NCBI GenBank assembly: GCA_965229215.1
Contig: OZ245864.1
Span: forward strand, 3,931,346-3,995,345
Length of the DNA stretch: 64,000 bases
Source: Tagaea sp.
GTDB taxonomy: Bacteria; Pseudomonadota; Alphaproteobacteria; CACIAM-22H2
Reading direction: 5' to 3'
Shown here: positions 26,945 to 54,040 of the stretch, piece by piece
Position numbering within the stretch: the stretch's first letter is position 1
Layout of the letters: every line of letters starts with the position of its first letter
Translations under genes and position numbers: made by a program
Notes under the pieces: generated by a model
Told to the model about the DNA's origin: nothing
Database searches by the model: none
The model's input: the letters and a program-made list of their open reading frames with translations, nothing else

Positions 26945-27053
26945 AGTTTCAGGCTCATAAATCGAGCTCTTTCCGGCTCCTTCCAGTCCTTGAATGGCTC
27001 TGGAGGGGCCGGAAATAGGTACGGATACCGTCCCCTCGAACCGGAGATGTCCC

Positions 27054-28795: not shown

Positions 28796-28809
28796 AGGAA
28801 GGAACGACC

Positions 28810-29526: not shown

Positions 29527-29536
29527 GAAAGACGGC

Positions 29537-29609: not shown

Positions 29610-29707
29610 CCCTTCACATCTCCCGCGAAACGGGGTCGGCGCATCCATTTGCGATGCACCGGCAACCCTCGCTTGCGGGTCCCCCAACCGGTCACACAGA
29701 GGGACCC

Positions 29708-30520: not shown

Positions 30521-30531
30521 GGAGAAAACAG

Positions 30532-30801: not shown

Positions 30802-30868
30802 GACCCGGAAACCGGCGGGCGGGTTCTTCCGCCCGCCGGATCTTCCCCAGGAATTCCAGGAGAACCCG

Positions 30869-31438: not shown

Positions 31439-33342
31439 GCGTCGTGCGCCTTGCCAAGACGAGCTTCGCCTCGGGCGAGATCGGCCCCGCGATGTACGGC
31501 CGCAGCGACCTGCGCGCGTTCGAGAACGGCGCGCGCACGCTGCGCAACGTTTTCGTGCAGCCCTCGGGTGGCGTGCGCCGCCGGCCGGGCCTCGTGCATA
31601 TCGACCTGCTGCCCGGCCCTGCGCGCCTGATCGGGTTCGAGTTCAACACCGAGCAGGCGTATCTGCTCGCGGTGCTGGGCGGCGAGACGCGCGTGTGGCG
31701 CGAGGACGAGCGCGTCGCGACCTTCGCCACGCCCTGGTCGGCCGCGCAGATCGGCCAGCTCGCCTGGACGCAGAGCGCCGACACGCTGCTCGTCGTGCAT
31801 CCCGACGTGCCGCCGCGGCGCATCACGCGCACGTCGGACACCGCGTGGAAGGTGGAGCCGTGGGCCTTCTTCGAGGAGAAGGGCATCTGCCGGCAGCCCT
31901 ATCACAAGTTCGCGGCCGACGAGGTGACGCTGACGCCGAACGGCACGGCCGGCACGGTGACGCTGAGCGCCTCGGCCGACGTGTTCGTCGCCGGGCATGT
32001 CGGGCTGCGCTTCCGCGTGCAGACGAAGGAGATGAAGATCGATGCCGTGGCGGGCCCGCGCACGGCCACGGCCACGCTTTGCACCGAGCAGACGCTGCCC
32101 GACACGAGCGCGACGCGCGACTGGGAGGAGCAGGCCTTCTCCGACGTGCGCGGCTGGCCGGTCAGCGTCACGTTCCATCAGGACCGGCTGGTGATCGGCG
32201 GCTCGCGCGACCTGCCCAACCGGCTGTGGCTGTCGAAATCCGGCGACCTGTTCAATTTCGACCTGGGTACCGGCCTCGACGACGAGGCGATCGAGTTCGC
32301 GCTGCTGTCCGACCAGGTCAACGCGATCCGGCACGTCTTCTCGGGCCGCCACCTGCAGGTCTTCACGTCGGGGGCCGAGTGGATGGTGTCGGGCGAACCG
32401 CTGACGCCCGAGAACGTCCAGCTCGACCGCCAGACCCGCATCGGCAGCCCGATCGACCGGTCGGTGCGCCCGCGCGACGTCGACGGCGCCACGCTGTTCG
32501 CCGGGCGCGGCGGGCGCGACCTGCGCGAGTTCCTGTTCGCCGACGGCGAGCAGGCCTATCAGGCGACGGATCTGGCGCTGCTCGCACCCCATCTGGTGCG
32601 CGATCCCGTCGCCATCGACTACGACCCCGACGACCGGCTGCTGCATGTCGTCAACGCCGACGGCACGCTCGCGACGCTGACGGTCTATCGCGCCGAACAG
32701 GTGACGGCGTGGACGCTGCAGACCACGCAGGGCGCGTTCCGCGCGGTCGCGGTGGCGGCGAACGAGACGTATCTCGCCGTCGAGCGCGACGGCGCATGGT
32801 CGATCGAGAGCTTCGATGCGGACTACGCGACCGATGCGGCCGTCTGGATCGAGCCGCCGGCCGGTGCGGCGCACTGGTCGGGGCTTTCGCATCTCGACGG
32901 CAAGGCGGTCGAACTCGTCGGCGACGGCGTGCCGCTGGGCACGACCGTCCCTGCGGGCGGCAAGGTGCCGGTGCTTGCACCCGTCGCGGAACTCGAAGCC
33001 GGCCTCGGCTTCGTTTCCGTCATCGAGCCGCTGCCGCCGTCGCTTGCGGCAGCGGGCGGTGCCAGTCCGCGCAGCGTGCGCCTGATCGAGGCGACGTTCC
33101 GCCTGCTGGAGGCGCGCCAGATGCGCCTCGACACCGGCAGCGGCCCCGTCGACGTGCCGTTCCGCGCCTTTGCGGCGGGCGGAATGCTCGACCGGCCGGT
33201 CGCCGGCTTCACCGGCGAGAAGCGCGTGCGTGCACTCGGCTGGAAACGCGCGGGCGTCGACGCGCTGTGGCGCATCGAACTGCCGGCACCGCTGCCTTTC
33301 ACGCTGCTCTCCGTAACCCAGGAAATGAAGGTGAACGACTGA
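31435..33342 (+). CDS. Tail tubular protein B (T7 gp12-like)
   Basis: 635 aa. N-terminal similarity to T7 gp12 (SFASGEIGP...R.D.....NG......GGVRRRPGL vs NLKGGISQQP..LRYPDQGSRQVNG.....GLQKRPPL). ATGA overlap with the tubular A gene. Confidence 0.8.
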   Translation: MSVVRLAKTSFASGEIGPAMYGRSDLRAFENGARTLRNVFVQPSGGVRRRPGLVHIDLLPGPARLIGFEFNTEQAYLLAVLGGETRVWREDERVATFATPWSAAQIGQLAWTQSADTLLVVHPDVPPRRITRTSDTAWKVEPWAFFEEKGICRQPYHKFAADEVTLTPNGTAGTVTLSASADVFVAGHVGLRFRVQTKEMKIDAVAGPRTATATLCTEQTLPDTSATRDWEEQAFSDVRGWPVSVTFHQDRLVIGGSRDLPNRLWLSKSGDLFNFDLGTGLDDEAIEFALLSDQVNAIRHVFSGRHLQVFTSGAEWMVSGEPLTPENVQLDRQTRIGSPIDRSVRPRDVDGATLFAGRGGRDLREFLFADGEQAYQATDLALLAPHLVRDPVAIDYDPDDRLLHVVNADGTLATLTVYRAEQVTAWTLQTTQGAFRAVAVAANETYLAVERDGAWSIESFDADYATDAAVWIEPPAGAAHWSGLSHLDGKAVELVGDGVPLGTTVPAGGKVPVLAPVAELEAGLGFVSVIEPLPPSLAAAGGASPRSVRLIEATFRLLEARQMRLDTGSGPVDVPFRAFAAGGMLDRPVAGFTGEKRVRALGWKRAGVDALWRIELPAPLPFTLLSVTQEMKVND

Positions 33343-33914
33343 TGGGCGCTCTCACGATTCCACAGATGATGATGGCGCAGACCGCCATGGCGGGCGCGGG
33401 CCTCGTCCAGGGCCTCGCCAATTCGCATGCCGCCGCTTCGCAGGCACAGGCGCAGGCCCGCGCGCAGGCGCAGATGGCGCAGGCACAAGCCGAACGCCAG
33501 CGCGAGCTGCTCGACCGGCAATACGCATCCGAGACGCGCCGGCGCACCAACCTGCTCGAACGCGCGACCGCCAAGGCGCGCGTCTCGTTCGGCGCGCGCG
33601 GCCTGTCGCCGACCGACGGTTCGGCGGGCGCATTGCTCGACGGCATCGAGACCGATTTCGGCCTCGACGAGGCCGAGCGCACGCAGGATTACGGCATGCG
33701 CCGCTCGGCCCTCGACGCCGGGCTCGCGGACTCGCTGCAGCGCATCGATTTCGCGACAGGCCGAAACCTTCTCGACCGCGAGTCCGACATCCAGCGCCGC
33801 GTCCTCGGCCTGCTGAACTGGGGCACGCGCAGTTTCGGACGCGGCGGCGGATTGCCGCGCGGCCCGGTCGGCGACTTCCCCGTCAATTCCGGCCTCTACG
33901 ACAACCTTGCCTGA
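33342..33914 (+). CDS. Small internal virion protein candidate (190 aa, Gln/Ala-rich; gp13/gp14 position)
   Basis: AQ-rich low-complexity N-terminus (AASQAQAQARAQAQMAQAQAERQ). Lies between the tubular B and tail fibre genes. Confidence 0.4.
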   Translation: MGALTIPQMMMAQTAMAGAGLVQGLANSHAAASQAQAQARAQAQMAQAQAERQRELLDRQYASETRRRTNLLERATAKARVSFGARGLSPTDGSAGALLDGIETDFGLDEAERTQDYGMRRSALDAGLADSLQRIDFATGRNLLDRESDIQRRVLGLLNWGTRSFGRGGGLPRGPVGDFPVNSGLYDNLA

Positions 33915-33925
33915 GGAGCACTGAC

Positions 33926-36574
33926 ATGAGCGACCACATCAAGATCGCCGCCAAGCTGCCGCGCTGCCGCTATCGCGCGAACGGCATGCAGCGCGTCTTC
34001 ACGTTCGATTTCGCCGTCTTCCGGCCCGAGGATGTCGAGATCCGCATCGACGGCACGCCGGTCGCGGGCGGCTATGCCGTCGCGGTCGGCGCACTCGGCA
34101 CGGGTGCCGCCACGCTCGACGCGGCACCCGCCGACGGCGCCATCGTCACGCTGAGCCGCCGCCTCGTCGTGCGGCGCGAGACGGATTTCCAGGAAGGCGG
34201 CGAGCTGCGCGCCAAGACGCTCAACGACGAGCTCGATTTCCAGACGGCCGCTCTCCAGCAGGTCGAGACGGCCGCCGCGCGCGCCCTGCATCTGCCGGTC
34301 GACGATCCGGACGATGCCACGACGCAGCTTCCGCGCGCGACGGCGCGCGCGAACCGCGCGCTGGTGTTCGATGCGGCCGGAAATCCGGCCGTGTCGGCCG
34401 ACCTCTATGCCGACCAGGCGGCGGCATCCGCCGCCAGCGCCGCTTCCGCCGCCGCTTCGGCCGGTTCGGCCGCTTCGGCTTCCGCCAACGCTTCCGATTC
34501 CGCCGTCGCCGCCGCGACGGGCTCGGCATCGGCCGCGAGCTCCGCCGCTTCGGCCGCCGCGCAGGCGACGTCGGCGAGCGCATCGGCGGCAGGTGCGGCT
34601 TCTTCGGCGCTCGCCGCATCCGGTTCGGCCGCATCGGCCGCTTCGGCGGCCGCCGGGCTCTCGGCGCTCGCGATCGCGTGGAATTTCGAATCCGCGGACG
34701 CGATGGCCGAACCCGCGGCCGGGGCCCTGCGCTTCAACGCCGCCACGCCTGCCGGCGCGAGCGCGCTGGCGCTCTCGGCGAACGCGGCCGATCCCGGCAA
34801 TCCCGACATCTCCGGCATCGTCGCCGCGTGGAACGCCAGCACCAGCACGTCGGCGCGCGGCCAGCTCGTGCTGCGCAAGCGCGGTACGCCCGCGACGTTC
34901 GCCGCCTTCAAGGTCTCGGGCGTGACGGACAACGGCGCCTGGCTGCTGGCCGACGTGGTGCCCGTCGCATCGGCCGGAACGTGGAGCGCCGGCGATACCG
35001 CCTATGCCGTCTTCACGGCCGCGGGCGACAAGGGCGACACCGGCAGCCTCGCCGGCGGCGGCTCGCTGACCGCGTCGATTGAGGAAGCCAAGCGGGTCGC
35101 GATTGCCTCCGCCGCGACGACGAACGTGTGGGGCGGGGACGGGAACTTCGTCCACGTCACGGGGAACGCGACGATCGCGAGCTTCGGCATCGCGCCGCAG
35201 GCGGGTTCGCAGCGCACGATCGTGTTCGACGGCGCGCTGACGCTGGTGCATGCGGCACCCGCACTCCAGCTGCCGGGCGGGGCCAGCATCGTCACGGCGC
35301 CGGGCGACCGCGCCATCGTGCGCGCGGACACGCCGGCCAATCACATCGTCGTCGCCTATACGCGCGCCGACGGCACGCCGCTGGCGCTGGGCAATGCCGG
35401 ACCCGTGCAGGCGATCCTTGCGGGCGAAACACTCGCCGACCGCGATCTCGTCTACCAGGACATCTTCAACCAGCGCGGCGGCGGGTCGACGCGCTGGTAC
35501 AGGGTCGATGCCGACGCGACCGGGCCGGTGCGCATCTCGCCGACGATCGGCATCGCGCTGGGCGCGATCGCGGGGGGAAGCACGGGCGCAGCGCAGATCC
35601 GCGCGGGGCGCGTGGCGGGGTTCGCGGGCCTGGTCGCGGGCGGCCCGGTCTGGGCGTCGGCGACGCCCGGCGGCGTGACCCAGTCCCCGCCGCCGCTTCC
35701 GGCGGGCGGCACGCAGCATGCGCTGCGCCTGGTCGGGATCGCGGCGTCGGCGGCCGAGATCGATTTCGCGCCCGACGACGACACGCTGTTCGTGAAGACC
35801 GGCGACGCGCTCGCGCACGGCGGCGTCCTGACGGTCGAGCACTGGAGCGATGTCGGCGCGCCCGACCGCGTGCCCTATGCCTCGACGATCGCGCAGGTCT
35901 TCGCGACGACCGTTTCGCGCGGCGCCGGCTCCAACGGCACCACCTACAACGGCTACACCGTGCGTCTCAGGTTCGCCGCGAGCGTGCTGTCGACGTCCGG
36001 AAGCCGGGTGCGCGTCACGTTCAAGGCGGGCGGCACGCAGCCGCTTGCGGTGAACAACGCCTATATCGGCGAGGCGGCGGCCGGCGGCAACGCCTGGGAT
36101 TTCGCAGCATCCCCCGCGCGCCTCACCTTCGGCGGCGGCGCCAACGGGTTTTCCATTCCCGTCGGCGCGAGCATCGTCTCCGACAGCGTCGTGTTCGCGC
36201 TCGACGAGGCGAAGAGCCACATCGTCTCGCTCGAAGTGCCGAGTGCGGGCGGACCATACGGCACGGACTACACCTCCGTGCCGGCCGGCTGGTCGACCTA
36301 CTACAAGTTGGGCGGCGTGGCGGATGCCGGCGCGGTGGCGCCCGGCGGATACAGCCAGGATTCCGCGAACACATATCTCGTCACGGCGGTCGAGGTTCTC
36401 GTCGTCACCCGCCGCGAGCCCGAGCCGGTCTTTCCCGAGGCGCGCTTCGCGGGCGCCGCCGACAGGGTCACCTGCCGCTACGACGACGGGGCGGGCGGCA
36501 ACGCCGACACGCGCACGAGCTTCGTGAACCGGACCGGCGCGCTGCAGGCGCTCGCCGTCGAGGTGCAGCTGTGA
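33926..36574 (+). CDS. Tail fibre protein (T7 gp17-like N-terminal adaptor domain, Ala/Ser-rich shaft, C-terminal beta-rich domain)
   Basis: 882 aa. N-terminus (IKIAAKLPRCRYRANGMQRVFTFDFAVFRPEDVEIRIDGTPV) parallels T7 gp17 (IKTVLTYQLDGSNRDFNIPFEYLARKFVVVTLIGVDRKVL). Contains a long A/S repeat region. Confidence 0.7.
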   Translation: MSDHIKIAAKLPRCRYRANGMQRVFTFDFAVFRPEDVEIRIDGTPVAGGYAVAVGALGTGAATLDAAPADGAIVTLSRRLVVRRETDFQEGGELRAKTLNDELDFQTAALQQVETAAARALHLPVDDPDDATTQLPRATARANRALVFDAAGNPAVSADLYADQAAASAASAASAAASAGSAASASANASDSAVAAATGSASAASSAASAAAQATSASASAAGAASSALAASGSAASAASAAAGLSALAIAWNFESADAMAEPAAGALRFNAATPAGASALALSANAADPGNPDISGIVAAWNASTSTSARGQLVLRKRGTPATFAAFKVSGVTDNGAWLLADVVPVASAGTWSAGDTAYAVFTAAGDKGDTGSLAGGGSLTASIEEAKRVAIASAATTNVWGGDGNFVHVTGNATIASFGIAPQAGSQRTIVFDGALTLVHAAPALQLPGGASIVTAPGDRAIVRADTPANHIVVAYTRADGTPLALGNAGPVQAILAGETLADRDLVYQDIFNQRGGGSTRWYRVDADATGPVRISPTIGIALGAIAGGSTGAAQIRAGRVAGFAGLVAGGPVWASATPGGVTQSPPPLPAGGTQHALRLVGIAASAAEIDFAPDDDTLFVKTGDALAHGGVLTVEHWSDVGAPDRVPYASTIAQVFATTVSRGAGSNGTTYNGYTVRLRFAASVLSTSGSRVRVTFKAGGTQPLAVNNAYIGEAAAGGNAWDFAASPARLTFGGGANGFSIPVGASIVSDSVVFALDEAKSHIVSLEVPSAGGPYGTDYTSVPAGWSTYYKLGGVADAGAVAPGGYSQDSANTYLVTAVEVLVVTRREPEPVFPEARFAGAADRVTCRYDDGAGGNADTRTSFVNRTGALQALAVEVQL

Positions 36575-38058
36575 GCGAGCCCGCACCGCCGAGTTTCCCC
36601 GACTTCGTCGAGCAGTGGAACGCGCTGCAGGGGCTCGCGACGCCCGCCGTGCACCGGCGCATGGCCGACTGGCTTGCCGACGCGCGCGCGGACCGGGCGA
36701 CGGGCCTGGTGCTGCTCGCGTTCCGCTCCAGCGGCAAGTCGACGCTGGTCGGCCTCTTCTGCGCCTGGCTGCTCGCCTGCGATCCCGACCTGCGGGTGAT
36801 GGTGCTGGCGGCGGAAGAGGCGCTGGCGCGCAAGATGGTGCGCAACGTCAAGCGCATCGTCGAGCGCCATCCGGCGACCGCGGGCCTCAAGCCCGCGCGC
36901 AAGGAGCTGTGGTCGGCCGACCAGTTCGTCGTCGAGCGGCGCGCGGAGCTGCGCGACCCCTCGATGCTGGCGCGCGGGCTTGCGGGCAACATCACCGGCA
37001 GCCGGGCCGACATCGTCATCTGCGACGACGTCGAGGTGCCAAACACCTGCGACACGCACGCCAAGCGCGCCGACCTGCGTGCGCGCCTGCTCGAGATCGA
37101 CTACGTGCTCGTGCCCGGCGGGCTGCAGCTCTATATCGGCACGCCGCACAACTACTATTCGATCTATGCCGACGCGGCGCGCGAGGAGGCGGGGGAGACG
37201 GCGCCGTTCCTCGACGGCTTCCGCCGCCTGTCGGTCCCGGTCCGCGACGCGGCGGGCGACAGCGCGTGGCCCGAACGCTTCGACGACGCGCGGATCGGGG
37301 CGGTGCTGACGCGGACCGGTCCGCTCAAGTTCCGCGCGCAGATGATGCTGGAGCCGGTCGCCGACGGCGCCTGCCGTCTCGATCCGGACCGCCTCGTTCC
37401 CTACGACCTGCCGCTCGACTATTCGGAAGGCAACGGCCAGCCGGTGCTGTCGATCGGCGGGAAACGCATGATGTCGGCAAGCTGCTGGTGGGACCCGTCC
37501 TACGGCTCGCCCGACGGCGACCGGTCGGTCGTCGCCATCGTCTTCACCGACGAGGACGGGCATGCCTGGCTGCACGACATCGCGTACCTGTCGGTGCCGC
37601 AAGGCGACGCGCGCGGCGACGAGGCAAGCGCCTTCTGCCGGCAGGTCGCCGAATTCGCGCGGCGCAACCACGCGCCGGGCGTGCGCATCGAGACCAACGG
37701 CCTCGGCGGCTTCCTGCCCGGCATCCTGCGCAAGGAGATGTCGGCCGCCGGCATCGGCGCCGCCGTGACCGGCGCGCACAGCCGCGTCGCGAAGGCCAAG
37801 CGCATCCTCGACGCGTTCGACGCACGGCTCGCCGCCGGCATGCTGCATGCGCACGCGCGCATCCGCGAAACGCCGTTCCTCGCCGAGATGCGCGAATGGC
37901 GGGCCGACATCCCCGGCATCCGCGACGACGGGCTCGACGCCGTCGCCGGCTGCCTTGCGAGCGAACCGTTGCGTCTCGCGCCCGCCCCGCGACCCGAGCG
38001 CGCGGACTGGCGGCCGGGGGCGCCCGCGCGCCTCGTGCCGAGCGATTTCGAGATCTGA
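36571..38058 (+). CDS. Terminase large subunit (T7 gp19-like)
   Basis: GTG start overlapping the fibre stop (GTGA). Walker A (AFRSSGKSTLVGL). Acidic nuclease-domain residues. 495 aa. Confidence 0.8.
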   Translation: MSEPAPPSFPDFVEQWNALQGLATPAVHRRMADWLADARADRATGLVLLAFRSSGKSTLVGLFCAWLLACDPDLRVMVLAAEEALARKMVRNVKRIVERHPATAGLKPARKELWSADQFVVERRAELRDPSMLARGLAGNITGSRADIVICDDVEVPNTCDTHAKRADLRARLLEIDYVLVPGGLQLYIGTPHNYYSIYADAAREEAGETAPFLDGFRRLSVPVRDAAGDSAWPERFDDARIGAVLTRTGPLKFRAQMMLEPVADGACRLDPDRLVPYDLPLDYSEGNGQPVLSIGGKRMMSASCWWDPSYGSPDGDRSVVAIVFTDEDGHAWLHDIAYLSVPQGDARGDEASAFCRQVAEFARRNHAPGVRIETNGLGGFLPGILRKEMSAAGIGAAVTGAHSRVAKAKRILDAFDARLAAGMLHAHARIRETPFLAEMREWRADIPGIRDDGLDAVAGCLASEPLRLAPAPRPERADWRPGAPARLVPSDFEI

Positions 38059-38076
38059 GAAGGAAAGGGAAGCATC

Positions 38077-38373
38077 ATGGACATGTTCGAACTCTCGCCC
38101 GGCCTGGCGCTCGTCGCGGCGTCGGACGCCTCGAGCTTCGGCGCGATCGCCTGGCTCCTCTGGAAGCGCCACCAGGATCACGACCGCGTGCTCGACCGGC
38201 TGCGCCAGGCCTGCCTCGACGAGACGCGCGAGCTGCGACAGGCGCTGGCCGAGTTCAAGCTGGAGGTCGCGCGCGGCTACGCTTCGATCGGCTACATCAA
38301 GGACGTGGAGAACCGCCTGACGGCGCATCTGCTGCGCATCGAGGCGAAACTCGACGGCGCGTCGGGGGGCTGA
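38077..38373 (+). CDS. Small single-TM protein (holin- or spanin-like candidate)
   Basis: 98 aa with one TM helix (ALVAASDASSFGAIAWLLW) then a coiled coil. Follows the terminase gene. Confidence 0.4.
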   Translation: MDMFELSPGLALVAASDASSFGAIAWLLWKRHQDHDRVLDRLRQACLDETRELRQALAEFKLEVARGYASIGYIKDVENRLTAHLLRIEAKLDGASGG

Positions 38374-38374
38374 G

Positions 38375-38920
38375 ATGATTCCGGCATTGATCGCCCAGAT
38401 CGGCCTGCCGCTGCTGGCGAAGCTCGTCGGTGGTGCCTTGTCGCGCGTCGACCATCCGGCCGCGCGCGAAGCCGCGCGCACGCTCGCGGCGGCCGGCGAC
38501 GACCTCACGCCCGAGCAGATCGCCGAAGCCAACCGCCATCTCGAAGCGCTGGCGAAGAGCGAAAGCGAGGAAGACCGCGAGACGCTGCGCGAGGTCAACG
38601 CGTCGCTGCGCGCCGAGGCCGCCAGCGAGGACGCCTATGTAAGGCGCATGCGGCCGACCTTCGGCTACGTGATGGCGGCGACGTGGGCGGCGCAGATGGG
38701 CGCGGTCGCGTGGGTCGTGGTGCGCGCACCCGCCGAAGCGGCCGCGGTGATCGAGGCGCTGGGCGCGCTGTCGGTCGTCTGGTCGGTCGGGCTGTCGGTG
38801 CTGGGCGTCTATGTCTACAAGCGCTCGGCCGACAAGGCCTTGTCTGCGGGGGCCCTGTCGGCGGGCGTGCCGGTGACGGGGCTCGTCGAGCGGCTGCTGC
38901 GGGCAGGAGAACGGCGCTAG
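38375..38920 (+). CDS. Membrane protein resembling 3-TM GTA-type holins
   Basis: 181 aa. Helical N-terminal region then hydrophobic segments near the C-terminus ([41 protein letters not shown]). Last gene of the cluster. Confidence 0.4.
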
Positions 38921-42690: not shown

Positions 42691-43754
42691 ACTGGTACGA
42701 TCTCGCCTTTCCGCTGATCCGCGCGATCGATCCCGAGGACGCGCACGGCCTCGCGGTCAAGGCGCTGGCCGGCGGCTTCGTGCCCACGCCGGCCCCGGTC
42801 GAGGATCCGAGCCTGCACGTGAAACTGTGGGGGCTCGATTTCCCGAACCCGATCGGCCTTGCCGCGGGCTTCGACAAGGATGCGCAGGTGCCCGACGCGA
42901 TGCTCGCGCAGGGCTTCGGCTTCGTCGAGATCGGCTCGGTCACGCCACGCCCGCAGCCGGGCAACCCGAAGAAGCGCCTGTTCCGTCTGACGGCGGACCA
43001 GGGTGTCATCAACCGGCTGGGCTTCAACAGCCGCGGCCTCGACGTCGCACGCGAGAATCTTGCGGCACGCAAGCGGCGCGGTGTGGTCGGCGTCAATCTC
43101 GGCAAGAACAAGGATACCGAGGACGCCGCCGACGACTACGTGAAAGGCGCTTTGGCGCTCGCCCCGTTCGCCGACTATCTCGTGTGCAACGTCTCCTCGC
43201 CCAACACGCCGGGCCTGCGGGCACTGCAAAGCCGCGAGGCGCTCGACGGCCTCGTGCTGCGCGTGCAGGAAGCGCTCGCCACGCTTGTTGGCGCCCCGCC
43301 GCTCGTCTTCAAGATCGCGCCCGACCTGGTCGATGCCGATCTGGAGGATGTCGTGCGCGTGGCGCTCGACCGCAGGCTCGCGGGCCTGATCGTCGGCAAC
43401 ACGACCCTGTCGCGGCCCGACACGCTCGCCGATCCGCAGAAGGCCGAGACCGGGGGCCTCTCCGGCCGGCCGCTTTTCGATCTTTCCACCCGAATCCTCG
43501 CCAGAACCCGCGCGCTCGCCGGGCGCGATCTGGTGCTGATCGGCACGGGTGGCGTGTTCGACGCGCACGACGCCTACGCCAAGATCCGGGCCGGCGCCTC
43601 GCTCGTGCAGCTCTATTCGGCGCTCGTCTATCGCGGGCCGGGGCTGGCCGCCCGCATCTGCCGCGAACTGCCCGCCCTGCTGCGCGCCGACGGCTTCGCC
43701 ACGGTGGCCGATGCGGTCGGCACCGCAACCTCGTTGACCGACGCGCGCGGATAG
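42687..43754 (+). CDS. pyrD: Dihydroorotate dehydrogenase (quinone), class 2
   Basis: GTG start overlapping the DUF952 stop (GTGA). Conserved PIGLAAGFDK, NVSSPNTPGLR and GTGGV motifs. 355 aa. Confidence 0.9.
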   Translation: MNWYDLAFPLIRAIDPEDAHGLAVKALAGGFVPTPAPVEDPSLHVKLWGLDFPNPIGLAAGFDKDAQVPDAMLAQGFGFVEIGSVTPRPQPGNPKKRLFRLTADQGVINRLGFNSRGLDVARENLAARKRRGVVGVNLGKNKDTEDAADDYVKGALALAPFADYLVCNVSSPNTPGLRALQSREALDGLVLRVQEALATLVGAPPLVFKIAPDLVDADLEDVVRVALDRRLAGLIVGNTTLSRPDTLADPQKAETGGLSGRPLFDLSTRILARTRALAGRDLVLIGTGGVFDAHDAYAKIRAGASLVQLYSALVYRGPGLAARICRELPALLRADGFATVADAVGTATSLTDARG

Positions 43755-43771
43755 GGGCATACCGGACCTCG

Positions 43772-44893
43772 ATGTCGCCCATCTCCCTGATCCTTCCCGC
43801 CGTTGCCTATGTCGTCGCCGGCGCCGCTGTCGGCCTGACGGCGGGCGTGCCGCTCGGCCTCACGGTCTTCGCGGTCGGCGCGGCCGTGCACGCGATCGTC
43901 GTCGCGGCCCAGCTCGCCAACCGGGTCGAGAACGCCGTACGCGCGCAGGCGCAGATCCGCCGCGAGCTGGCGTCGGCGCGCGAGGAGGCGCGCGGCATCC
44001 TCGAGGCGATCGAGAACGCCGCCCGCACGCGCCCCGATCTCGGCCACGTGATGGGCGAGGTGAAGGTGCTGCAGGGGCTGGTCGAGAAGCTGTCGGGCCA
44101 GCCCGTGCCGAAATCCGGCGCCGGGCCGGTGCGCCCCGATCCTTCCTACGGCGACGAACAGGTGCTCGACATCGTGCGCGACGCGCTGCGCGAGAACCGG
44201 GTCGAGCTCTATGTGCAGCCGATCGTCGATCTGCCGCAGCGCCGCCGCCGCCATTTCGAATGCTTCAGCCGCATGCGCGCGCCCGAAGGCCACATCATCG
44301 GCCCCGAGCGCTATCTGGCGCTCGCCGAGCGCTACGGTCTCGTCGCCGCGATCGACAACATGCTGCTGTTCCGCTGCGTGCAGCTCGTGCGCCGCATGCA
44401 GCGCACGAACGCGGGTGCGGGCATCTTCGTCAACATCTCCGAGCACACGCTCGCCGACACGCGCTTCTTCGCCGAGTTCGTCACGTTCATGGCGCAGAAT
44501 TCCGACCTGTCGCAGAACCTCGTCTTCGAGCTGGCCGAGGGCCACACGCGCCGCCTGACGGAAATCCAGTGGGCCGAGCTCGACCGGCTGGGCAGCCTCG
44601 GCTTCCGTTTCTCGATGGACCAGGTCGGCGACCTGCGCTTCGATCCCGCGGCGCTGGCCAAGCGCAATTTCCGCTTCGTGAAGGTCGATGCCAAGAAGAT
44701 CGTCGAATACGCCAACGGCGCTTCGGGCGCCGACTTCCTGCGCCTGCGCACGCAGATGATGGACCGGCACGTCGCGCTCGTGGTCGAGAAGATCGAGAGC
44801 GAGGCCGAACTCGTCGAGGTGCTCGACCTCGACGCCGATTACGGGCAGGGCTTCCTGTTCGGCGAACCGAAACCGCTCAAAGAAGAAAAATGA
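43772..44893 (+). CDS. Membrane-anchored EAL-domain protein (c-di-GMP phosphodiesterase-like; signature reads FEC instead of EAL)
   Basis: Two N-terminal TM helices, a coiled coil, then an EAL fold (YVQPIVDL...N..E..........E.AE....D......KVD...E.IE....QG). 373 aa. Confidence 0.8.
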   Translation: MSPISLILPAVAYVVAGAAVGLTAGVPLGLTVFAVGAAVHAIVVAAQLANRVENAVRAQAQIRRELASAREEARGILEAIENAARTRPDLGHVMGEVKVLQGLVEKLSGQPVPKSGAGPVRPDPSYGDEQVLDIVRDALRENRVELYVQPIVDLPQRRRRHFECFSRMRAPEGHIIGPERYLALAERYGLVAAIDNMLLFRCVQLVRRMQRTNAGAGIFVNISEHTLADTRFFAEFVTFMAQNSDLSQNLVFELAEGHTRRLTEIQWAELDRLGSLGFRFSMDQVGDLRFDPAALAKRNFRFVKVDAKKIVEYANGASGADFLRLRTQMMDRHVALVVEKIESEAELVEVLDLDADYGQGFLFGEPKPLKEEK

Positions 44894-45930: not shown

Positions 45931-48081
45931 ATGGCGGACTTTACCAAGCCGAATCTGGCGGACTGGGAGAAACTCGCGCGCGCCGAGCTGAAGGGTGCGG
46001 CATCGGAGAGCCTTGCCTGGACGAGCCCCGAGGGAATCGTCGTCAAGCCGCTCTATACCGAGGCCGATCTTGCCGGGCTCGAACATGTCGGCGGCATGCC
46101 GGGCATCGCACCCTATGTACGCGGGCCCCGCGCCACCATGTACGCCAACCGGCCCTGGACGATCCGGCAATATGCCGGCTTCTCGACGGCCGAGGAATCG
46201 AACGCGTTCTACCGCAAGGCGCTCGCTGGCGGGCAGGCGGGGCTTTCGGTCGCCTTCGATCTCGCCACGCATCGCGGCTACGACAGCGACCATCCGCGCG
46301 TCACGGGCGACGTGGGCAAGGCGGGCGTTGCGATCGATTCCGTCGAGGACATGAAGATCCTGTTCGACGGCATCCCGCTCGAGAAGATGTCGGTCTCGAT
46401 GACCATGAATGGCGCGGTGCTGCCCGTGCTCGCGGCCTTCATCGTCGCGGGCGAGGAGCAGGGCGCCACGCAGGCGCAGCTTTCCGGGACCATCCAGAAC
46501 GACATCCTCAAGGAGTTCATGGTCCGCAACACCTACATCTATCCGCCCGCGCCCAGCATGCGCATCGTGGCCGACATCATCGCGCACACGGCCGCGCACA
46601 TGCCGAAATTCAATTCGATCTCGATCAGCGGCTATCACATGCAGGAAGCGGGGGCGACCTGCGTGCAGGAACTCGCCTTCACGCTCGCGGACGGTCTCGA
46701 ATACGTCCGGGCCGCGCTGTCGAAGGGCCTCGACGTCGATGCTTTCGCGCCGCGCCTGTCGTTCTTCTTCGCCATCGGCATGAATTTCTTCATGGAGATC
46801 GCCAAGCTGCGCGCCGCGCGCTTCCTGTGGGCGCGCGCGATGAAGAAGCTCGAGCCGAAGAAGGCCGACAGCCTCGCGCTGCGCACGCACTGCCAGACCT
46901 CGGGCGTCTCGCTGACCGAGCAGGACCCCTACAACAACATCGTGCGCACCGCGTTCGAGGCGATGGCGGCTGCACTCGGCGGCACGCAGTCGCTGCACAC
47001 CAACTCGTTCGACGAGGCGCTGGCGCTGCCCACGCCCTTCTCCTCGCGCATCGCGCGCAATACGCAGCTCATCCTGCAGGAGGAGACGGGGATCTCCCGC
47101 GTCGTCGATCCGCTGGCCGGCAGCTATTATGTCGAGCACCTGACCGCCTCGATGATCGCCGAAGCCCAGAAGCTGATCGACGAGGTTGAGGCGCTGGGCG
47201 GCATGACCAAGGCGGTCGAGAGCGGCATGCCCAAGCTGCGCATCGAGGAGGCTGCCGCGCGCCGGCAGGCGCGCATCGACCGCGGCGAGGAGACCGTCGT
47301 CGGCGTCAACAAGTACCGCCCCGCCGAAACCGAGCAGATCGACATTCTCGACGTCGACAACGCGGCCGTGCGCGAAAGCCAGATCGCGCGCCTGAAGAGG
47401 GTCCGCGCGTCGCGCGACGCGAAGAAGGTCGCCGGCACGCTCGAGGCCCTCACCAAGGCCGCCGCATCGGGCGAAGGCAACCTGCTGACGCTCGCCATCG
47501 AGGCGATGCGCGCGCGCGCGACGGTGGGCGAGGTCTCCGACGCGCTGGAGAAGGTCTATACGCGCCACCGCGCGACGATCCGCTCGGTCACCGGCATCTA
47601 CGGCTCGGCCTATGACGGGGATGCCGGCTTCGCGCGCATCAAGGAGGATGTCGCCGCCTTCGCCAAGACCGAAGGCCGCCGCCCGCGCATGCTGGTGGTG
47701 AAGCTCGGCCAGGACGGGCACGACCGGGGGGCCAAGGTGATCGCGACGGCGTTCGCCGACATCGGCTTCGACGTCGATGTGGGCCCGCTCTTCCAGACGC
47801 CGGAAGAAGCCGCGCGCCAGGCGATCGAGAACGACGTGCATGTCATCGGCGTGTCCTCGCAGGCCGCCGGCCACAAGACGCTGGTGCCCGCCCTGATCGC
47901 GGCGCTGAAGGCCGCGAAGGCGGACGACATCCTCATCGTGTGCGGCGGGGTGATCCCGCCGCAGGACTATCAGGGGCTGATCGAGGGCGGCGTCGCCGCC
48001 ATCTACGGCCCCGGAACGAATATCCCGCACGCCGCGGCCGAGATTCTCGGCCTCATCCGGCGCCAGCGCAAAGCCGCTTAA
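45931..48081 (+). CDS. Methylmalonyl-CoA mutase (single large subunit type, B12-dependent)
   Basis: 716 aa. Conserved mutase TIM-barrel motifs and a C-terminal B12-binding DxHxxG (DGHDRGAKV). Confidence 0.92.
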
Positions 48082-48124
48082 AGACTCCAACCGACGACGC
48101 CCCCGGGCAGAAGCGAACCGCAAC

Positions 48125-51100
48125 ATGGACGACAAGAAGACCGGCCCCCGCCTCATCCGCAGCAGCGAAGCGCAGCCCGACAACGCGATCCGGGCCGCCA
48201 ACGATCCGGGCGGGCCGGCCTACGAGCCGCTGCCGCCGGTCGGGCGGCGCAGCTTCTTCGTCGCCGCGGGCCTGAGCGGGGCGTGGATACTCGCCGTGCT
48301 CTGGTACGCGAACGCGCAGGTCGGCTTCTCGGCCTTCGGCGAGATGCTTCCGCACGAGCTGGGCGCGTTCGTCGGCGGCGCCGCGATGCCGCTGATGGTG
48401 CTGTGGTTCGTGTTCGCGTATCTCGCGCGCGGGCGCGATCTCGCCCGGCATGCGCGCGCGCTCGAAGTGCGCCTTTCCGAGCTCGCCTATCCGGCCGAGC
48501 GCGCGGAGATCAAGCTGCGCACGATCGGGGAAAGCCTGCACGAGCAGGCCAAGGCGCTGGCGGCCGCGTCCGACACGGCGACGAACCGCCTGTCCGAGGC
48601 GCGTCAGGGCCTGTCGACGCAGGCAAGCGAACTCACCACCGTTTCCGATCAGGCCGCGATGCGCGCCATGCAGGTGATGGCCGGCCTTCGCCGCCACGCC
48701 GACGGGCTCGAGCGCGTCACCTCGCTGCTGTCGAGCCGCGTGCAGATCGTCGAGGCCGCCGTGCGCGAGCAGGCCGACGCGCTCGCCGGCGCCTCCGACC
48801 GGGCGCTGTCGCAGTCGCGCGAGATCAATGCCACGCTGCGCGAGCAGATCGAGACGCTCGCCTCGACCAACGAGAAGACGGCCGCCAACGCCGGCGCCAT
48901 CCGCGAGGCGCTGCGCGAGCAGTCGCAGGATCTCGCCGAGACGACCGAGCGCGCGCGCGCGCGCGCGGCCGAAATCCGCTCGATCCTCGCCGACCAGAGC
49001 TCGGCCCTGATCGACGCGACCGAGGGCGCGCTCGACCGCGCGCGCGAAGTGGGCGAATTGCTGCGCAAGCAGTCCGACGCCTTCTCCGACGCCGCCGAGA
49101 CGGCCGAAGGGCGCGCGAGCGCCGCGGCCGTCGAGATGGGCTCGGCCCGCCGTTCGGCCGAAGCCGCCAGCGACAACCTTGCGGAAGCCTCCGACAAGCT
49201 GCTGGGTCTCGCGCGCGAGCTCGCCCGCCAGAGCGACACGACGCAGAACGCGCTGCGCGCGCAGATGTCGGTCCTCGCGGAAGCCGCCGGCGACGCGCAG
49301 CTGCGCGTCGACACGGCCGGCGCCGCGATCCGCGAACGCACCGACGACGTGACGACCGCCGCCGTGCGCATGAACGACGTCGCCACGAATCTGGGTGCGG
49401 AGACGCGCAACCTGCAGGCGACGCTCGAGCGGCTCGCCGCGCGCACCGAAGCGTCGAGCGAATCCGTCCGCCGCCAGGGCCACGAGCTCGCGACGGCCGC
49501 CGACCAGGCGGTCGCGCGCGTGCGCGCCGCGGGCGAGGCGTTCCATTCCCAGTCGCGCGAACTGGCCGATGCCGCCGCGCAGGCGCTGGCGCGCGTGGGT
49601 GCCACCACCGCCGGATTCTCGGAAGTCGCGCGCGAAGTGACTCTGCGCACGCAGGAAGCCGAAGCCAAGGCCGCATCGATCGGCGAGGACATGCGGCGCC
49701 ACGGGGCGGGCCTCGTCGAGGCCGCCGACACCGCCGGGCGCAGTGCGGGCGAAGCCGGCGCCAAGCTGTCGCGCGAGGTGGAGGCCATCCTGCGCGCGTC
49801 CGGCGCGCTCGCCGCCGAGGCGATGTCGACCGAATCGATGCTGCAGGCCGAAACGCATCTCGTCGCCGAGGCCGCCCAGCGCGCCCGCGCGAGCGTCGAA
49901 GGGGCGGGGGCCGCGCTCAAGGCGCGCATGGAGGATCTCGACGCGTCCAGCCGCCGCGTGGGCGAATCGCAGGTGGCGCTGGACGGGCTTGCCCAGCGCA
50001 GCCAGGAATCGCTCGACCGCGTCGCCGCGCGCGTCGATGCCTCGGGCGAGGTCGCGCGCCGCCGCGCCGACGAACTCGTCGTCGCCGCCGACCAGGCGGC
50101 CCAGCGCGTACGCATGACGAGCGAAGGTTTCCGCGTACAGGCGCAGGACATGGTGCATGCGGCCGACCTCGGCCTCGCGCGCGCCGAGGAACTGGGCGCC
50201 ACGCTGAAGCGCCGCAGCGAAGAGATCGATTCCGCCAGCGAGCGCACCACCCAGCGCCTGGACACGCTCGCCGACCATGTGCGCGCGCAGAGCGTCGTGC
50301 TGGCCGATACGGCCGGCGAGACCGCGCAGAAGCTCGGCACGTCGGGCGAGGCCGTGCGCCTGAAGGTCGAAGCGCTCGAAGCCGCCGCCGACGCCACGAT
50401 TTCGCGTCTGGGCGACGCCGCCTCGTCGGTCGACCGGCGCGCCAGGGATCTCGACACGACGGCGGCCCTTGCCGCCCAGCGCCTTGACGAGAGCGGCGAG
50501 AAGCTGCGCGCGCGCGGGCTGGAAGCGGAAGCCAGCGTCGCCTCGGCCACCCAGCGTCTCGACGCGACCGCGATCGCCCTCGGGCAGGACGCGCGCGAGG
50601 TCGCCACGGCCCTCGACCGTGCCGCCGCGCGCATGGAAGCGACCGGCGAGGTCGCGCGCAACGAAGGTGCTGCGCTCGAAGTGGGCGCCGACCAGGCCGC
50701 CGCGCGCGTACGCGCGGCCGGCGAGGGATTCCGCCAGGAAACGCAGGGTCTGGTACGCGCCGCCGAAAACGGCATGTCGCAGGCCGATGCCTATGCCGAA
50801 GCGCTCAAGCACCGCGCGGCCGAGATGGTCGAGACCGCGGGCCGCGTGGGCGAGCGTCTCGACGCGCTCCACGGCACGCTGCGCGAGCAGACCGCCGATC
50901 TCGCCGAGACGGCGGGCCAGAAGGCGCTGGAGCTCGACCGCGCGGGCGAGGCCGTCCGCCAGAAGGCCGAGGCGATCGGCGCCACGGCGGAGGCCGCGCG
51001 CCTGCGCATCGACGAAGCCGCTTCGGACGTCGCGCGCAACGCCAAGGATCTCGATGCCATGGGGCACCAGGCCGCCGCGCGCCTGCGCGACGGGGCGGAA

Positions 51101-54040
51101 CAGCTGCGCCAGCGCACGATGGAGGCCGACGCGAACGTCGCGGCCGCCACCCAGCGCCTCGACGCCACGTCCGCCGCCCTTTCCAAGGACGCGCACGAGG
51201 TTGCCGTCGCGGTCGACCGCGCGTCGGCACGCATGGAAGCGACCGGCGAAGTGGCAAGGCGCGAGAACGAGCAGCTCGTCCTCGCGGCCGACCAATCGAC
51301 CGTGCGCCTGCGCAGCACCGGCGAGACCGTGCGCCAGGAAACCAACGCGCTCGTCCACGCGGCCGAAGCGGGCATCGCGCAATCGGCCGCCTACGCCGAG
51401 ACGCTGCGCCAGCGCAGCCACGACCTTTCCGATACGGCCGGCCGCGTGGGAACGCAGCTGGGCGAACTGCACGGGGCACTCCGCGCGCAGACGATCGAGC
51501 TCGGCAGCGTTGCCGAGGACAAGACGGCGATCCTCGAACGCTCGGCCGAGACGCTGCGTCTGGGCACCGAGGCGATCGAGGCGGCCGCATCCGCCGCGCG
51601 TACGCGCATCGACGAGGCGGCCGGCGACGTGGGCCGCAGCGCGCGCGATCTCGACGCCACGACCCATCAGGCCGTGGCGCGCCTGCGCGACGGCGCGGAA
51701 ACGCTGCGCCAGCGCGCCTCGGAAGCGGACGCCAATGTCGCGGCGACGACCCAGCGCCTGGATGCCACGGCCGCTTCGCTCGCCAAGGACGCCAACGAGA
51801 CCGTCACCGCCGTCGATCGTGCCACCGCACGCATGGAAGCGAGCGGCGAGGCCGCCCGGCGCGAGAACGAGCAGCTCGTCCTTGCCGCCGACCAGTCGGC
51901 CGCGCGCGTGCGCGGGGCCGGCGAGACGTTCCGCGTGGAAACGCAGAGCCTCGTGCATGCGTCCGAGCAGGGGCTCGACCGCGCGAACCAGCTTGAAACC
52001 GCGATCGCGCAGCGCGCGGCGGAAACCAGCGCCGCGGCCGACCGGGCGCTCACGCGCCTCGACGAGGCGGCCGATTCCCTGCGCAAGCGCGGGCTCGAGG
52101 TGACGGAAGTCTCGGGTGCGGCCGTGCTGTCGATCGGCAACGCGGGGCATGCGCTGCGCCGCGAGACCGAGGAACTCGGCAGCGCTTCGGCCCTGTCGGC
52201 ATCGCGCATCAACGAGACGGCGGCCCTGCTGGACCAGCGCTCGGGCGAACTCGCCTCGATCGCCGCGCAGGCCGGCCAGCGTCTCAAGGAATCGTCCGAA
52301 TCGCTGCGCGCGCGCACCGGCGAGCTCGAAGGGGCGGCCGAACGTTCGGCCGTGCGCGTCGGCGCCATCGACGCCTCGCTGCGCGACCAGACGCTCGCGC
52401 TGCTCAAGACCATCGAGCAGGTGTCGGGCCGGGCGGGCGAAGTGGGCGCCGTCCTCGAAAACCAGGTCGCGGCCGTCGCGCGTGCGTCGGACGACGCGAC
52501 CGCGCGCCTGCGCGCCTCTTCCGACGTGTTCCGCGACCGGGCCGGCGAGATGCAGGTCCTCGCAACCGCCACGACCGAGAAGGTCTCGGCGACGGGTGCC
52601 GAAACCGAACGCCGCCTGCAGGCGCTCGCCACGCAGGCCGTCGAGACCTCGGGCCGTCTCGAGGAGAGCGGCGAGACCTTCCGCCAGCGCCTCGGCGACA
52701 TGAACCGCGCGGCGACGAGCGTGGGCGGCCTGATGGCCGAGGCAAGCGAGACCTTCCGCCGCCATTCGGGCGACCTGCAGGTCGCGGTCGACGGTGCGCT
52801 CTCGCGCATCGGGCAGGCCGGGCAGGCATTGCGCGAACGCACGGTCGATCTCGGCGGTGCCGCCGATGCGGCCGAAGCGCGGCTGTCGATGGTGGCCGAA
52901 CTCATGCGCGGCAACGCGGGCTCCCTTGCCGACATCGCGGACCGTTCGGCGGTCAAGCTCGATGCACTGGGCGAGGCGCTGGTGCGCCGCGCGGCCGAGC
53001 TTTCCGCCATGTCCGACGGCACGGCCGCGCGCCTTGCCACGGTCGACGCCACGCTGGGCGAGCAGCGCGAGAACCTCGTGCGCACGCTGGAGACGCTGGG
53101 CAGCCGCGCCAACGAACTCGGTCAGGTGCTGCGCGGCCAGGCCGATCACCTCAACGGTGTCGTCGCCGAAGCGGGCGAGCGCCTGTCGGAAGTGGGCGCC
53201 CAGTTCGACCGGCAGGCCCGCGAGGCCGCCGATGCCGCGACCGTCGCCAGCCAGCGCATCGGCGAGACCGGCACGTCGCTGCGCCGCCGATCGGACGAAC
53301 TGCAGGTCGCCGCACAGGACGGCGGCATGAAGCTCGAAGCCACCGGCGAGAGCTTCCGTCGCCGCGCGGAAGAGGTCATGGCGGCCGTCGGCCAGGCGGC
53401 CGCCCGCATCGCCTCGGTCGGCGAGAGCTTCGCGCGCCAGACGCGCGAAATGGGCGTGGCGATGGATGCCGCCGAACGGCGCATCGCGGAAGCCGAACGC
53501 CTGCTGGCGCACGAGGCCGAGACGTTGGATGCGGCGGCCTCGAAGGTCACGCGCGATGCCTCGGAAGCCACCGACGCCTTCCGCCGCCAGGCGGACGATC
53601 TCGCGTCGGCGGCGGCCAGCGCCAACGACGCGCAGGCGCGCCTCACCTCGAGCGAGTTCGAAGCCAAGCGCGGCCGCTTCCTGCGCGCCTCGCGTCTCGT
53701 CGTCGAAGGGCTCAACTCGCTGTCGATCGACCTTGCGCGCACGCTCGACCCGAGCGTCACCGACCGCGTGCTGAAGGAGTTCCTCGGCGGCGACCGCGGC
53801 GTGTTCGTGCGCCGCCTCCTGCGCCTCAACTGGGGGTCGACGGGCAAGGTCGTGCAGAAGCGCTACGGCGAGGATGCGGATTTCCGCCGCTACGTCACCG
53901 ACTACCTGACGCAGTACGATCGCCTGATCGCCGACGCGCGCGAGGCCGATCCGGAAAACGTGCTCGTCTCGACCTTCCTGTCGGCCGACGTCGGCAAGCT
54001 CTACATGACGCTCGCGTCGATCGTGGGCTGGAAGAAGTAG
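48125..54040 (+). CDS. Giant (1971 aa) membrane-anchored coiled-coil protein with apolipoprotein-like ~200-aa repeats
   Basis: Two N-terminal TM helices. About 1700 aa of Ala/Arg/Glu-rich helical repeats. A unique C-terminal globular domain (LNWGSTGKVVQKRYGEDADFRRYVTDYLTQYDRL). High GC3 throughout. Confidence 0.75.
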   Translation: MDDKKTGPRLIRSSEAQPDNAIRAANDPGGPAYEPLPPVGRRSFFVAAGLSGAWILAVLWYANAQVGFSAFGEMLPHELGAFVGGAAMPLMVLWFVFAYLARGRDLARHARALEVRLSELAYPAERAEIKLRTIGESLHEQAKALAAASDTATNRLSEARQGLSTQASELTTVSDQAAMRAMQVMAGLRRHADGLERVTSLLSSRVQIVEAAVREQADALAGASDRALSQSREINATLREQIETLASTNEKTAANAGAIREALREQSQDLAETTERARARAAEIRSILADQSSALIDATEGALDRAREVGELLRKQSDAFSDAAETAEGRASAAAVEMGSARRSAEAASDNLAEASDKLLGLARELARQSDTTQNALRAQMSVLAEAAGDAQLRVDTAGAAIRERTDDVTTAAVRMNDVATNLGAETRNLQATLERLAARTEASSESVRRQGHELATAADQAVARVRAAGEAFHSQSRELADAAAQALARVGATTAGFSEVAREVTLRTQEAEAKAASIGEDMRRHGAGLVEAADTAGRSAGEAGAKLSREVEAILRASGALAAEAMSTESMLQAETHLVAEAAQRARASVEGAGAALKARMEDLDASSRRVGESQVALDGLAQRSQESLDRVAARVDASGEVARRRADELVVAADQAAQRVRMTSEGFRVQAQDMVHAADLGLARAEELGATLKRRSEEIDSASERTTQRLDTLADHVRAQSVVLADTAGETAQKLGTSGEAVRLKVEALEAAADATISRLGDAASSVDRRARDLDTTAALAAQRLDESGEKLRARGLEAEASVASATQRLDATAIALGQDAREVATALDRAAARMEATGEVARNEGAALEVGADQAAARVRAAGEGFRQETQGLVRAAENGMSQADAYAEALKHRAAEMVETAGRVGERLDALHGTLREQTADLAETAGQKALELDRAGEAVRQKAEAIGATAEAARLRIDEAASDVARNAKDLDAMGHQAAARLRDGAEQLRQRTMEADANVAAATQRLDATSAALSKDAHEVAVAVDRASARMEATGEVARRENEQLVLAADQSTVRLRSTGETVRQETNALVHAAEAGIAQSAAYAETLRQRSHDLSDTAGRVGTQLGELHGALRAQTIELGSVAEDKTAILERSAETLRLGTEAIEAAASAARTRIDEAAGDVGRSARDLDATTHQAVARLRDGAETLRQRASEADANVAATTQRLDATAASLAKDANETVTAVDRATARMEASGEAARRENEQLVLAADQSAARVRGAGETFRVETQSLVHASEQGLDRANQLETAIAQRAAETSAAADRALTRLDEAADSLRKRGLEVTEVSGAAVLSIGNAGHALRRETEELGSASALSASRINETAALLDQRSGELASIAAQAGQRLKESSESLRARTGELEGAAERSAVRVGAIDASLRDQTLALLKTIEQVSGRAGEVGAVLENQVAAVARASDDATARLRASSDVFRDRAGEMQVLATATTEKVSATGAETERRLQALATQAVETSGRLEESGETFRQRLGDMNRAATSVGGLMAEASETFRRHSGDLQVAVDGALSRIGQAGQALRERTVDLGGAADAAEARLSMVAELMRGNAGSLADIADRSAVKLDALGEALVRRAAELSAMSDGTAARLATVDATLGEQRENLVRTLETLGSRANELGQVLRGQADHLNGVVAEAGERLSEVGAQFDRQAREAADAATVASQRIGETGTSLRRRSDELQVAAQDGGMKLEATGESFRRRAEEVMAAVGQAAARIASVGESFARQTREMGVAMDAAERRIAEAERLLAHEAETLDAAASKVTRDASEATDAFRRQADDLASAAASANDAQARLTSSEFEAKRGRFLRASRLVVEGLNSLSIDLARTLDPSVTDRVLKEFLGGDRGVFVRRLLRLNWGSTGKVVQKRYGEDADFRRYVTDYLTQYDRLIADAREADPENVLVSTFLSADVGKLYMTLASIVGWKK
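49950..52350 (+). repeat. Intragenic tandem repeats (~600-bp period, 4 or more copies) within the giant coiled-coil gene
   Basis: The unit starting ...ATQRLDAT... recurs at ~50546, ~51143 and ~51743, with a more diverged copy at ~49950. The DNA-level repeat GCATGGAAGCGACCGGCGAGG recurs with a 600-bp period. Confidence 0.55.

Follow-up and report, generated by a model that had tools for sequence, protein, structure and literature searches.

Sequence homology at both ends links a giant membrane-anchored protein of Tagaea sp. to the Rhizobiales pole organisers GPR and RgsE

TipN of Caulobacter crescentus, which has two N-terminal transmembrane (TM) helices and a coiled coil, is a polarity landmark, and the Scy/FilP-type coiled coils of Streptomyces are polar-growth scaffolds with a strictly kept non-heptad period (a 51-mer) and no TM anchor. 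Closest to the protein considered here are two proteins of the Rhizobiales, GPR (growth-pole ring) of Agrobacterium tumefaciens (Atu1348) and RgsE (rhizobial growth and septation protein E) of Sinorhizobium meliloti (SMc00190). They are scaffolds that organise the pole at which the cell grows, marked by a ring or focus at this pole and by cells that lose their rod shape when the protein is depleted. The topology and membrane anchoring of RgsE have been verified experimentally (PMC7327166), while the C terminus of GPR is required for both its function and its localisation (PMC8262873). Krol et al. 2020 also mentioned 'more distant' RgsE homologues in Rhodospirillales and Emcibacterales (PMC7327166). 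We describe a 1971-residue protein encoded at positions 48125..54040 (+) of a 64,000-nucleotide (nt) stretch of Tagaea sp. DNA (contig OZ245864.1 of assembly GCA_965229215.1, positions 3,931,346 to 3,995,345; hereafter the window). Judged by its sequence, this protein, referred to below as the giant, is one of those distant homologues: a true but remote relative of GPR and RgsE, homologous to them at both ends.

The open reading frame (ORF) is complete, running from an ATG through 1971 amino acids (aa) to a stop codon, and its GC content at third codon positions (GC3) of 0.90 is that of real genes in the host genome (70% GC). The protein as a whole is rich in Ala (21%), Arg (11%), Leu (10%) and Glu (9%) and poor in Pro (0.6%). 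It begins with a cytoplasmic tail (aa 1-42; 48125..48250; this and all features of the giant are on the + strand), which is its variable part and to which the small indels among orthologues are confined. TM helices were called where the 19-residue Kyte-Doolittle mean exceeded 1.6. By this measure TM helix 1 spans aa 43-63 (48251..48313) and aligns to the TM region of RgsE and GPR, while TM helix 2 spans aa ~78-101 (48359..48427) and holds the invariant P50/W55 of our family alignment A2. The loop between them (aa 64-78; 48314..48358) carries the motif (I/V)G(W/F)..(L/F)....LPHE(L/I)G, taken from the family alignment. A conserved juxtamembrane helix, RGRDLARHARALEVRLSELAYPAE (aa 102-125; 48428..48499), leads into a helical rod of 1,718 residues (aa 126-1843; 48500..53653), and the protein ends in an all-alpha domain of ~128 residues (aa ~1844-1971; 53654..54037), the hallmark that the family has in common with GPR and RgsE and which we call the C-domain. 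This layout upholds much of an earlier account of this DNA made from its letters alone (the sequence-only reading), which had proposed a membrane-anchored ORF of this length with two N-terminal TM helices, some 1700 helical residues rich in Ala, Arg and Glu, and a distinct C-terminal domain; the last of these proves to be conserved.

GPR had been named in that account as a protein to compare, and BLASTP found a match to it at either end. The C-domain is 36% identical to GPR over 128 aa (E 6e-17) and 37% identical to RgsE over 115 aa (E 2e-22). The N-terminal module lies in the same position in all three proteins and matches GPR with 30% identity over 115 aa (E 7e-8) and RgsE with E 3e-6. On the family profile the last 128 residues of GPR scored 103.6 bits, or E 9.6e-25 for a library of 1.8 billion proteins, and TM helix 2 of GPR together with its juxtamembrane segment gave a domain of 16.5 bits with profile A2 at the equivalent place. 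The segment that follows TM helix 2 (R-x-R-D/E-L ... L-A-x-P-E) is present in the Tagaea protein as in GPR and RgsE, GPR carrying ARARDLRNAARSMAEVALRLAEPE at the position equivalent to RGRDLARHARALEVRLSELAYPAE. Between the N- and C-terminal matches, BLASTP of the giant against GPR returned nothing, and the rods do not align. The GPR sequence came from the supplement of Zupan et al. 2021 (PMC8262873) by optical character recognition, which recovered 2,099 of 2,115 residues with the letter O read as Q; a clean RgsE sequence (PLSDB record CP090106.1) was used to confirm the result. That record is labelled 'S. meliloti Ak57 plasmid pSymB', yet at 3.72 Mb, and carrying RgsE, folKBP and petABC, it looks like the chromosome.

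The likeness extends to overall architecture. In each case two N-terminal TM helices anchor a cytoplasmic protein, a homologous juxtamembrane helix follows, and ~1,700 residues of continuous alpha-helix separate it from a homologous C-terminal domain of ~125 aa (36-37% identity); total sizes are also similar, at 1971 aa in Tagaea against 2115 in GPR and 2089 in RgsE. The differences lie largely in the rod and the setting. GPR has a rod period of 11/22 aa (3.65 residues per turn), whereas that of the Tagaea rod is 25 aa (3.57). The Pfam apolipoprotein family PF01442 scores 257.8 bits in 12 stretches of RgsE but 18.3 bits in a single stretch of the Tagaea protein. GPR possesses a Pro-rich low-complexity linker (residues 1890-2000), whereas the last 25-mer of the giant runs straight into the C-domain. 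The Tagaea host belongs to the Rhodospirillaceae, and the neighbouring gene is methylmalonyl-CoA mutase rather than the divergent Hpt gene found beside RgsE. Because RgsE/GPR and the Tagaea protein differ in PF01442 score and rod period, the 'apolipoprotein' character is a feature of the Rhizobiales branch, the ends alone being family-wide.

The rod is built on a strict period. Between aa 126 and 1843 it contains 0.0% Pro and comprises ~69 repeats of a basic unit of 25 aa (75 nt). Every multiple of 25 ranks at the top of the BLOSUM autocorrelation, where comparison with shuffles gives z = 25 at lag 25 and z = 27 at lag 200. Written in rows of 25, the protein displays 49 consecutive 25-mers in perfect register and with zero indels (aa 626-1850; 50000..53674). 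Their consensus (L1 A4 A5 D6 A8 R11 L12 G16 E17 L/F19 R20 R22 A23 E25) has large hydrophobics at positions 1, 12 and 19 and Ala at 4, 5, 8 and 23, and the hydrophobicity spectrum peaks sharply at 3.57 residues per turn, or 25/7, coherently across 1,225 residues. This period is that of a heptad-heptad-hendecad pattern. The hydrophobic stripe is narrow, made of Leu and Ala and flanked by Arg and Glu, the mark of a long coiled coil that is nearly straight; from it we infer a coiled-coil state. An AlphaFold2 model of aa 826-1225 consists of two unbroken helices of ~200 residues each (DSSP). It was built from the window's own paralogous units and, with a predicted local distance difference test score (pLDDT) of 64, was used for secondary structure alone.

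Above the 25-mer stands a higher-order unit of 200 aa (8 x 25), equal to a period of 600 nt in the DNA. Four such units at aa 626-1425 (50000..52399) are 38-61% identical in protein sequence, and beyond aa 1425 identity declines to 21-26%. At the DNA level, sequences separated by 600 nt show an ungapped identity of 59-67%, where the background is 31 +/- 3% and reaches 41% at most. The sequence-only reading had recognised both the ~600-bp period and the ~200-aa tandem repeats. The period holds, although the register is 50546 / 51146 / 51746 and not the 50546, 51143 and 51743 that it gave; the 200-aa repeat likewise holds as the higher-order unit, its 25-aa basic unit having been missed.

Where rod length varies within the genus, it does so by a whole unit. 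A degenerate-pattern scan with the C-terminal domain located 144 loci among species-representative genomes, the closest in metagenome-assembled genomes (MAGs) of Tagaea sp. (Rhodospirillales, Rhodospirillaceae). The orthologues in these MAGs, which come from independent assemblies, are 1971-1977 aa long; those of 1971 and 1973 aa, on a 1.87-Mb contig and a 4.09-Mb chromosome, are 91.6% identical to the window protein, and their rods show zero indels relative to it. Other Tagaea species encode versions of 1772-1779 aa, exactly one 200-aa unit shorter (aa ~970-1171; 51032..51637, the exact place within the tandem units not being fixable) and with no further difference of 5 aa or more. Copy number does therefore vary between species; the sequence-only reading had thought that it may vary between strains. 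Apart from this one exact unit, Tagaea rods that are 66-85% identical are free of indels of 5 aa or longer, and those of 1,718 aa need no gap in alignments that show 72-85% identity. The same exactness is met elsewhere in the family: three rods of 1,296 aa align gap-free at 63-76% identity, six representative proteins share a rod length of exactly 937 aa at an ungapped identity of 21-43%, and rods of 885 aa are 28% identical. That length should be exact at such divergence, and should change in whole repeat units, points to strong selection on the length and phase of the rod.

The C-domain defines a large, unnamed family that neither Pfam nor NCBIfam models. When its profile was searched exhaustively with HMMER, 1,925 clusters (50% identity) matched at E <= 1e-3 and 1,281 at E <= 1e-10; without exception the domain closed the protein, whose length ranged from ~240 to 1,900 aa. 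It is accompanied in 100 collected sequences by the N-terminal module, with the motif IGW..L..LPHELG...P....W....R.RDL....L...L..L.YPAE. A search with the C-terminal 180 aa returned metagenomic fragments, all named 'hypothetical protein', and the same was the sole name among the matches listed for a profile of 45 sequences combining the N- and C-terminal parts. AlphaFold2 predicts a confident all-alpha C-domain of seven helices (pLDDT 89.8; predicted template modelling score 0.80). A fold search of this model against the PDB gave no significant match (best E 0.13), nor did the sequence match any PDB chain.

Family members differ widely in what lies between the two ends, their lengths running from 246 aa, where the rod is missing, to about 2,000 aa. 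In a 246-aa relative, found also on a 2.3-Mb contig, the TM hairpin is joined directly to the C-domain, which in such rod-less members lies ~16 residues from the membrane module. Most of the members examined from outside the Rhizobiales have a 25-aa rod period (3.57), and a few have one of 29 or local arrays of 36 to 40. Two loci, L026 (rod 469-786) and L017 (rod 438-660), contain tandem arrays of 36 and 40 aa inside rods of 25-aa period, almost exactly at the rod midpoint. A short and a long member (L037, 398 aa; L042, 1107 aa) are encoded in one genome and, because they share contig CAVZIN010000010.1, paralogues of differing rod length can coexist. There is also a subfamily in which 'FPSE' replaces 'YPAE' (P0079, P0124, P0140, P0148, P0159, P0167 and others); many of its members end in ...AA (RAA, KAA or QAA), resembling ssrA-like ClpXP degrons, while the Tagaea protein ends in GWKK.

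Taken together, these observations are, in our judgement, probably best explained by a GPR/RgsE-family membrane-anchored scaffold in which the rod acts as spacer or ruler, a polar or envelope-associated structure being the best candidate for its place in the cell. The hairpin of two TM helices would anchor the giant in the inner membrane with both termini cytoplasmic; the conserved juxtamembrane helix would continue into the unbroken, Pro-free rod, and this would end in the compact all-alpha domain of ~125 residues. Because the 246-aa relatives consist of the TM module and the C-domain alone, these two parts may be regarded as the functional core. The rod would then serve as a coiled-coil spacer or ruler, and an assembly associated with the membrane would owe its geometry to the exact length and phase of this rod; the C-domain would bind partners or associate with itself. 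By homology, that assembly would be a polar or envelope scaffold like the GPR ring. In a further sub-model, plausible if weakly supported, the rod folds back as an antiparallel hairpin and returns the C-domain to the membrane, keeping the proximity found in rod-less members. The youngest repeats lie near the rod centre in many family members, though not in all (relative position 0.26-0.55).

Several considerations weigh against this interpretation. Rhodospirillales have MreB and are not known to grow from one pole. The localisation, interaction and phenotype data for the family come from its Rhizobiales members, and the location and ruler role given here to the Tagaea protein are putative. Since the rods of GPR/RgsE and Tagaea differ in period and do not align, properties that depend on the rod need not carry over. 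For the C-domain, the PDB offers no structural or sequence relative from which an activity might be read. The coiled-coil state and the topology of the rod are predictions, the fold-back in the AlphaFold2 model is of low confidence, and the central position of young repeats, which would bear on it, is suggestive given the members that depart from it. Finally, Krol et al. saw none of the remaining Rgs proteins in Rhodospirillales and proposed that the role differs in that order (PMC7327166).

Other explanations fit parts of the evidence. One is that the repeats were collapsed or expanded in assembly, as the sequence-only reading feared they might have been. Short-read metagenomes do mostly yield fragments, or chimeric or frameshifted pieces, of such genes. 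However, the units have diverged to the point of 59-67% DNA identity, and orthologues of the same length, with rods free of indels relative to the window, occur in independent chromosome-scale Tagaea assemblies; for these reasons we conclude that the array is no artefact and leave this explanation almost no weight. Frameshifted or N-to-C chimeric pieces of the gene were seen among short-read assemblies (P0021, P0023), and most database matches sit on contigs < 5 kb; evidently short-read assembly fails at the repeats, which keeps full-length members out of sight in protein databases. An SMC-like, kinesin-like or nucleoid-tethering protein is very improbable. The NCBIfam model SMC_prok_B (TIGR02168) does match with E 1.9e-6, and the RgsE gene of CP090106.1 bears the product name 'kinesin'. 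Yet the former match reaches 26 bits against a cutoff of 567 and covers coiled coil only, and Pfam and NCBIfam revealed no ATPase, motor, head or hinge domain. Origin localisation is disturbed in an A. tumefaciens gpr deletion mutant, as a tether to the nucleoid might predict, but enrichment of GPR fused to green fluorescent protein at origins in chromatin immunoprecipitation was barely above background and the effect on origins was judged indirect. Pfam and NCBIfam searches likewise found no enzyme domain in the giant, and with homology to GPR/RgsE at both ends the earlier suggestion of a GPR-like protein rather than an enzyme stands. A methyl-accepting chemotaxis protein was rejected as a candidate, there being no MCPsignal or HAMP match from Pfam in the giant; genuine genes of that class were detected elsewhere in the window.

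Two readings concern the rod and the role more closely. The giant might be an apolipoprotein-like or phasin-like lipid-binding protein, whose amphipathic helices coat membrane or lipid/polyhydroxybutyrate surfaces and whose main job is lipid organisation. Helices of this kind, which lie on lipid surfaces, have 11/3 = 3.67 residues per turn. The giant and its relatives give weak, sub-threshold Apolipoprotein and ApoLp-III matches and have in common with Apolipoprotein A1/A4/E (PF01442) long amphipathic helical repeats rich in A, E, R and L; furthermore, GPR has been assigned to PF01442, and a connection with lipids has been proposed for it by its authors (PMC8262873). Against this, the PF01442 score of 18.3 bits lies far below both the cutoff of 90 and the score of RgsE, and the rod has 25-mers at 25/7 = 3.57 in place of 11/22-mers, no Pro punctuation, and a narrow Ala-rich (Ala/Leu) hydrophobic stripe with Arg and Glu at its flanks. 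Residue-exact conservation of length would also be unexpected for a surface coat. The label 'apolipoprotein-like' given earlier thus holds only loosely, and a lipid coat seems to us distinctly improbable. Less remote, if still unlikely, is a TipN-like landmark that marks the new pole or the division site and orients polarity or flagellar placement rather than envelope growth. The gross architecture is the one described for TipN, which has been called 'analogous' to GPR (PMC13170164), and the host order is not known for polar growth. On the other hand, the demonstrated homology is to GPR/RgsE, the termini of TipN are described as disordered (PMC13170164) where the family of the giant has a folded, conserved C-domain, and TipN, compared here by description alone, is much shorter at 882 aa. 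Such a role is functionally close to that of the GPR/RgsE-family scaffold which we prefer and is not separable from it by sequence. The Scy/FilP proteins offer a further likeness to the giant in being very long coiled coils of unusual, strict non-heptad period, linked in their host to polarity.

The genomic neighbourhood is conserved. The giant lies directly downstream of a methylmalonyl-CoA mutase gene (45931..48081, +), as the sequence-only reading had stated, across an intergenic gap of 43 nt (48082..48124, +). That reading had also raised the possibility of a separate transcription unit, which is not indicated: we looked in this gap for a terminator-like or promoter-like (sigma-70-like) site and found none, and the adjacency of mutase and giant is conserved. 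The two genes are possibly co-transcribed; no functional link between them is evident. Upstream, on the + strand throughout, lie genes for dihydroorotate dehydrogenase, an EAL-domain protein, a HAD hydrolase and the mutase; downstream, in convergent orientation, come those for a serine beta-lactamase-fold protein, an MBL-fold protein and SecA, with ArgJ after them. The order mutase-giant-SecA-ArgJ is kept in Tagaea and in far more distant carriers, whose C-domains are 57-60% identical. The EAL-domain gene (c-di-GMP phosphodiesterase-type; 43700-44893, +) lies three genes upstream of the giant, a place conserved in Tagaea loci. A small Hpt-domain gene is divergent from the GPR-family gene in S. 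meliloti (122 aa; L080 5102-5470, -) and in Sphingomonas parapaucimobilis (97 aa; L081 5661-5954, -), whose GPR-family gene encodes 774 aa, and is thus a neighbour common to two orders; BLAST detected no counterpart in the Tagaea window or in other family loci.

Elsewhere in the window, a prophage-like block (25693-38920) includes genes for an S24/LexA-type peptidase-repressor (25693-26844, -), a T7-type head-to-tail connector or portal (26990-28795; PF12236) and a capsid protein (29588-30520; PF19821), the last followed by three large ORFs (774, 882 and 480 aa) without Pfam matches. An ORF of 1290 aa (4686-8558, +) has a Pyr_redox_2 match at residues 512-708 only and overlaps the COX15/CtaA gene (3463-5019, -); its true start is probably much further downstream.

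That a GPR homologue exists in Rhodospirillales is no surprise, as the literature already hints at it. The anatomy of the family, with its unnamed C-domain, 25/7 rod, residue-exact lengths and rod-less members, is as far as we found undescribed. GPR/RgsE is the least understood pole organiser of Rhizobiales, and its domains have so far been defined by loose analogy with apolipoproteins. The comparison made here distinguishes the parts conserved over long evolutionary distance, namely the TM and juxtamembrane module and the ~125-aa C-domain, from the apolipoprotein-like repeats, which are confined to one lineage, and it provides in the rod-less members natural minimal versions to work with. It also raises the question of what job a GPR homologue performs in bacteria not known for polar growth. 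We would tentatively suggest, as a possibility that we regard with some doubt, that membrane-anchored 'molecular rulers' form an old family spread across the alphaproteobacteria, of which GPR/RgsE is a single specialised branch. The TM hairpin and C-domain would form the core of such proteins; their rods would have been rebuilt by lineage-specific expansion of repeats (units of 25, 29, 36 or 22), mostly near the rod centre, and then frozen to the residue, with Rhizobiales and Tagaea each arriving on their own at rods of ~1,700 residues. Were this so, residue-frozen rods would be in keeping with an antiparallel fold-back by which the C-domain comes back to the membrane, and laterally elongating bacteria would use the family to size a polar or envelope structure unrelated to polar growth.

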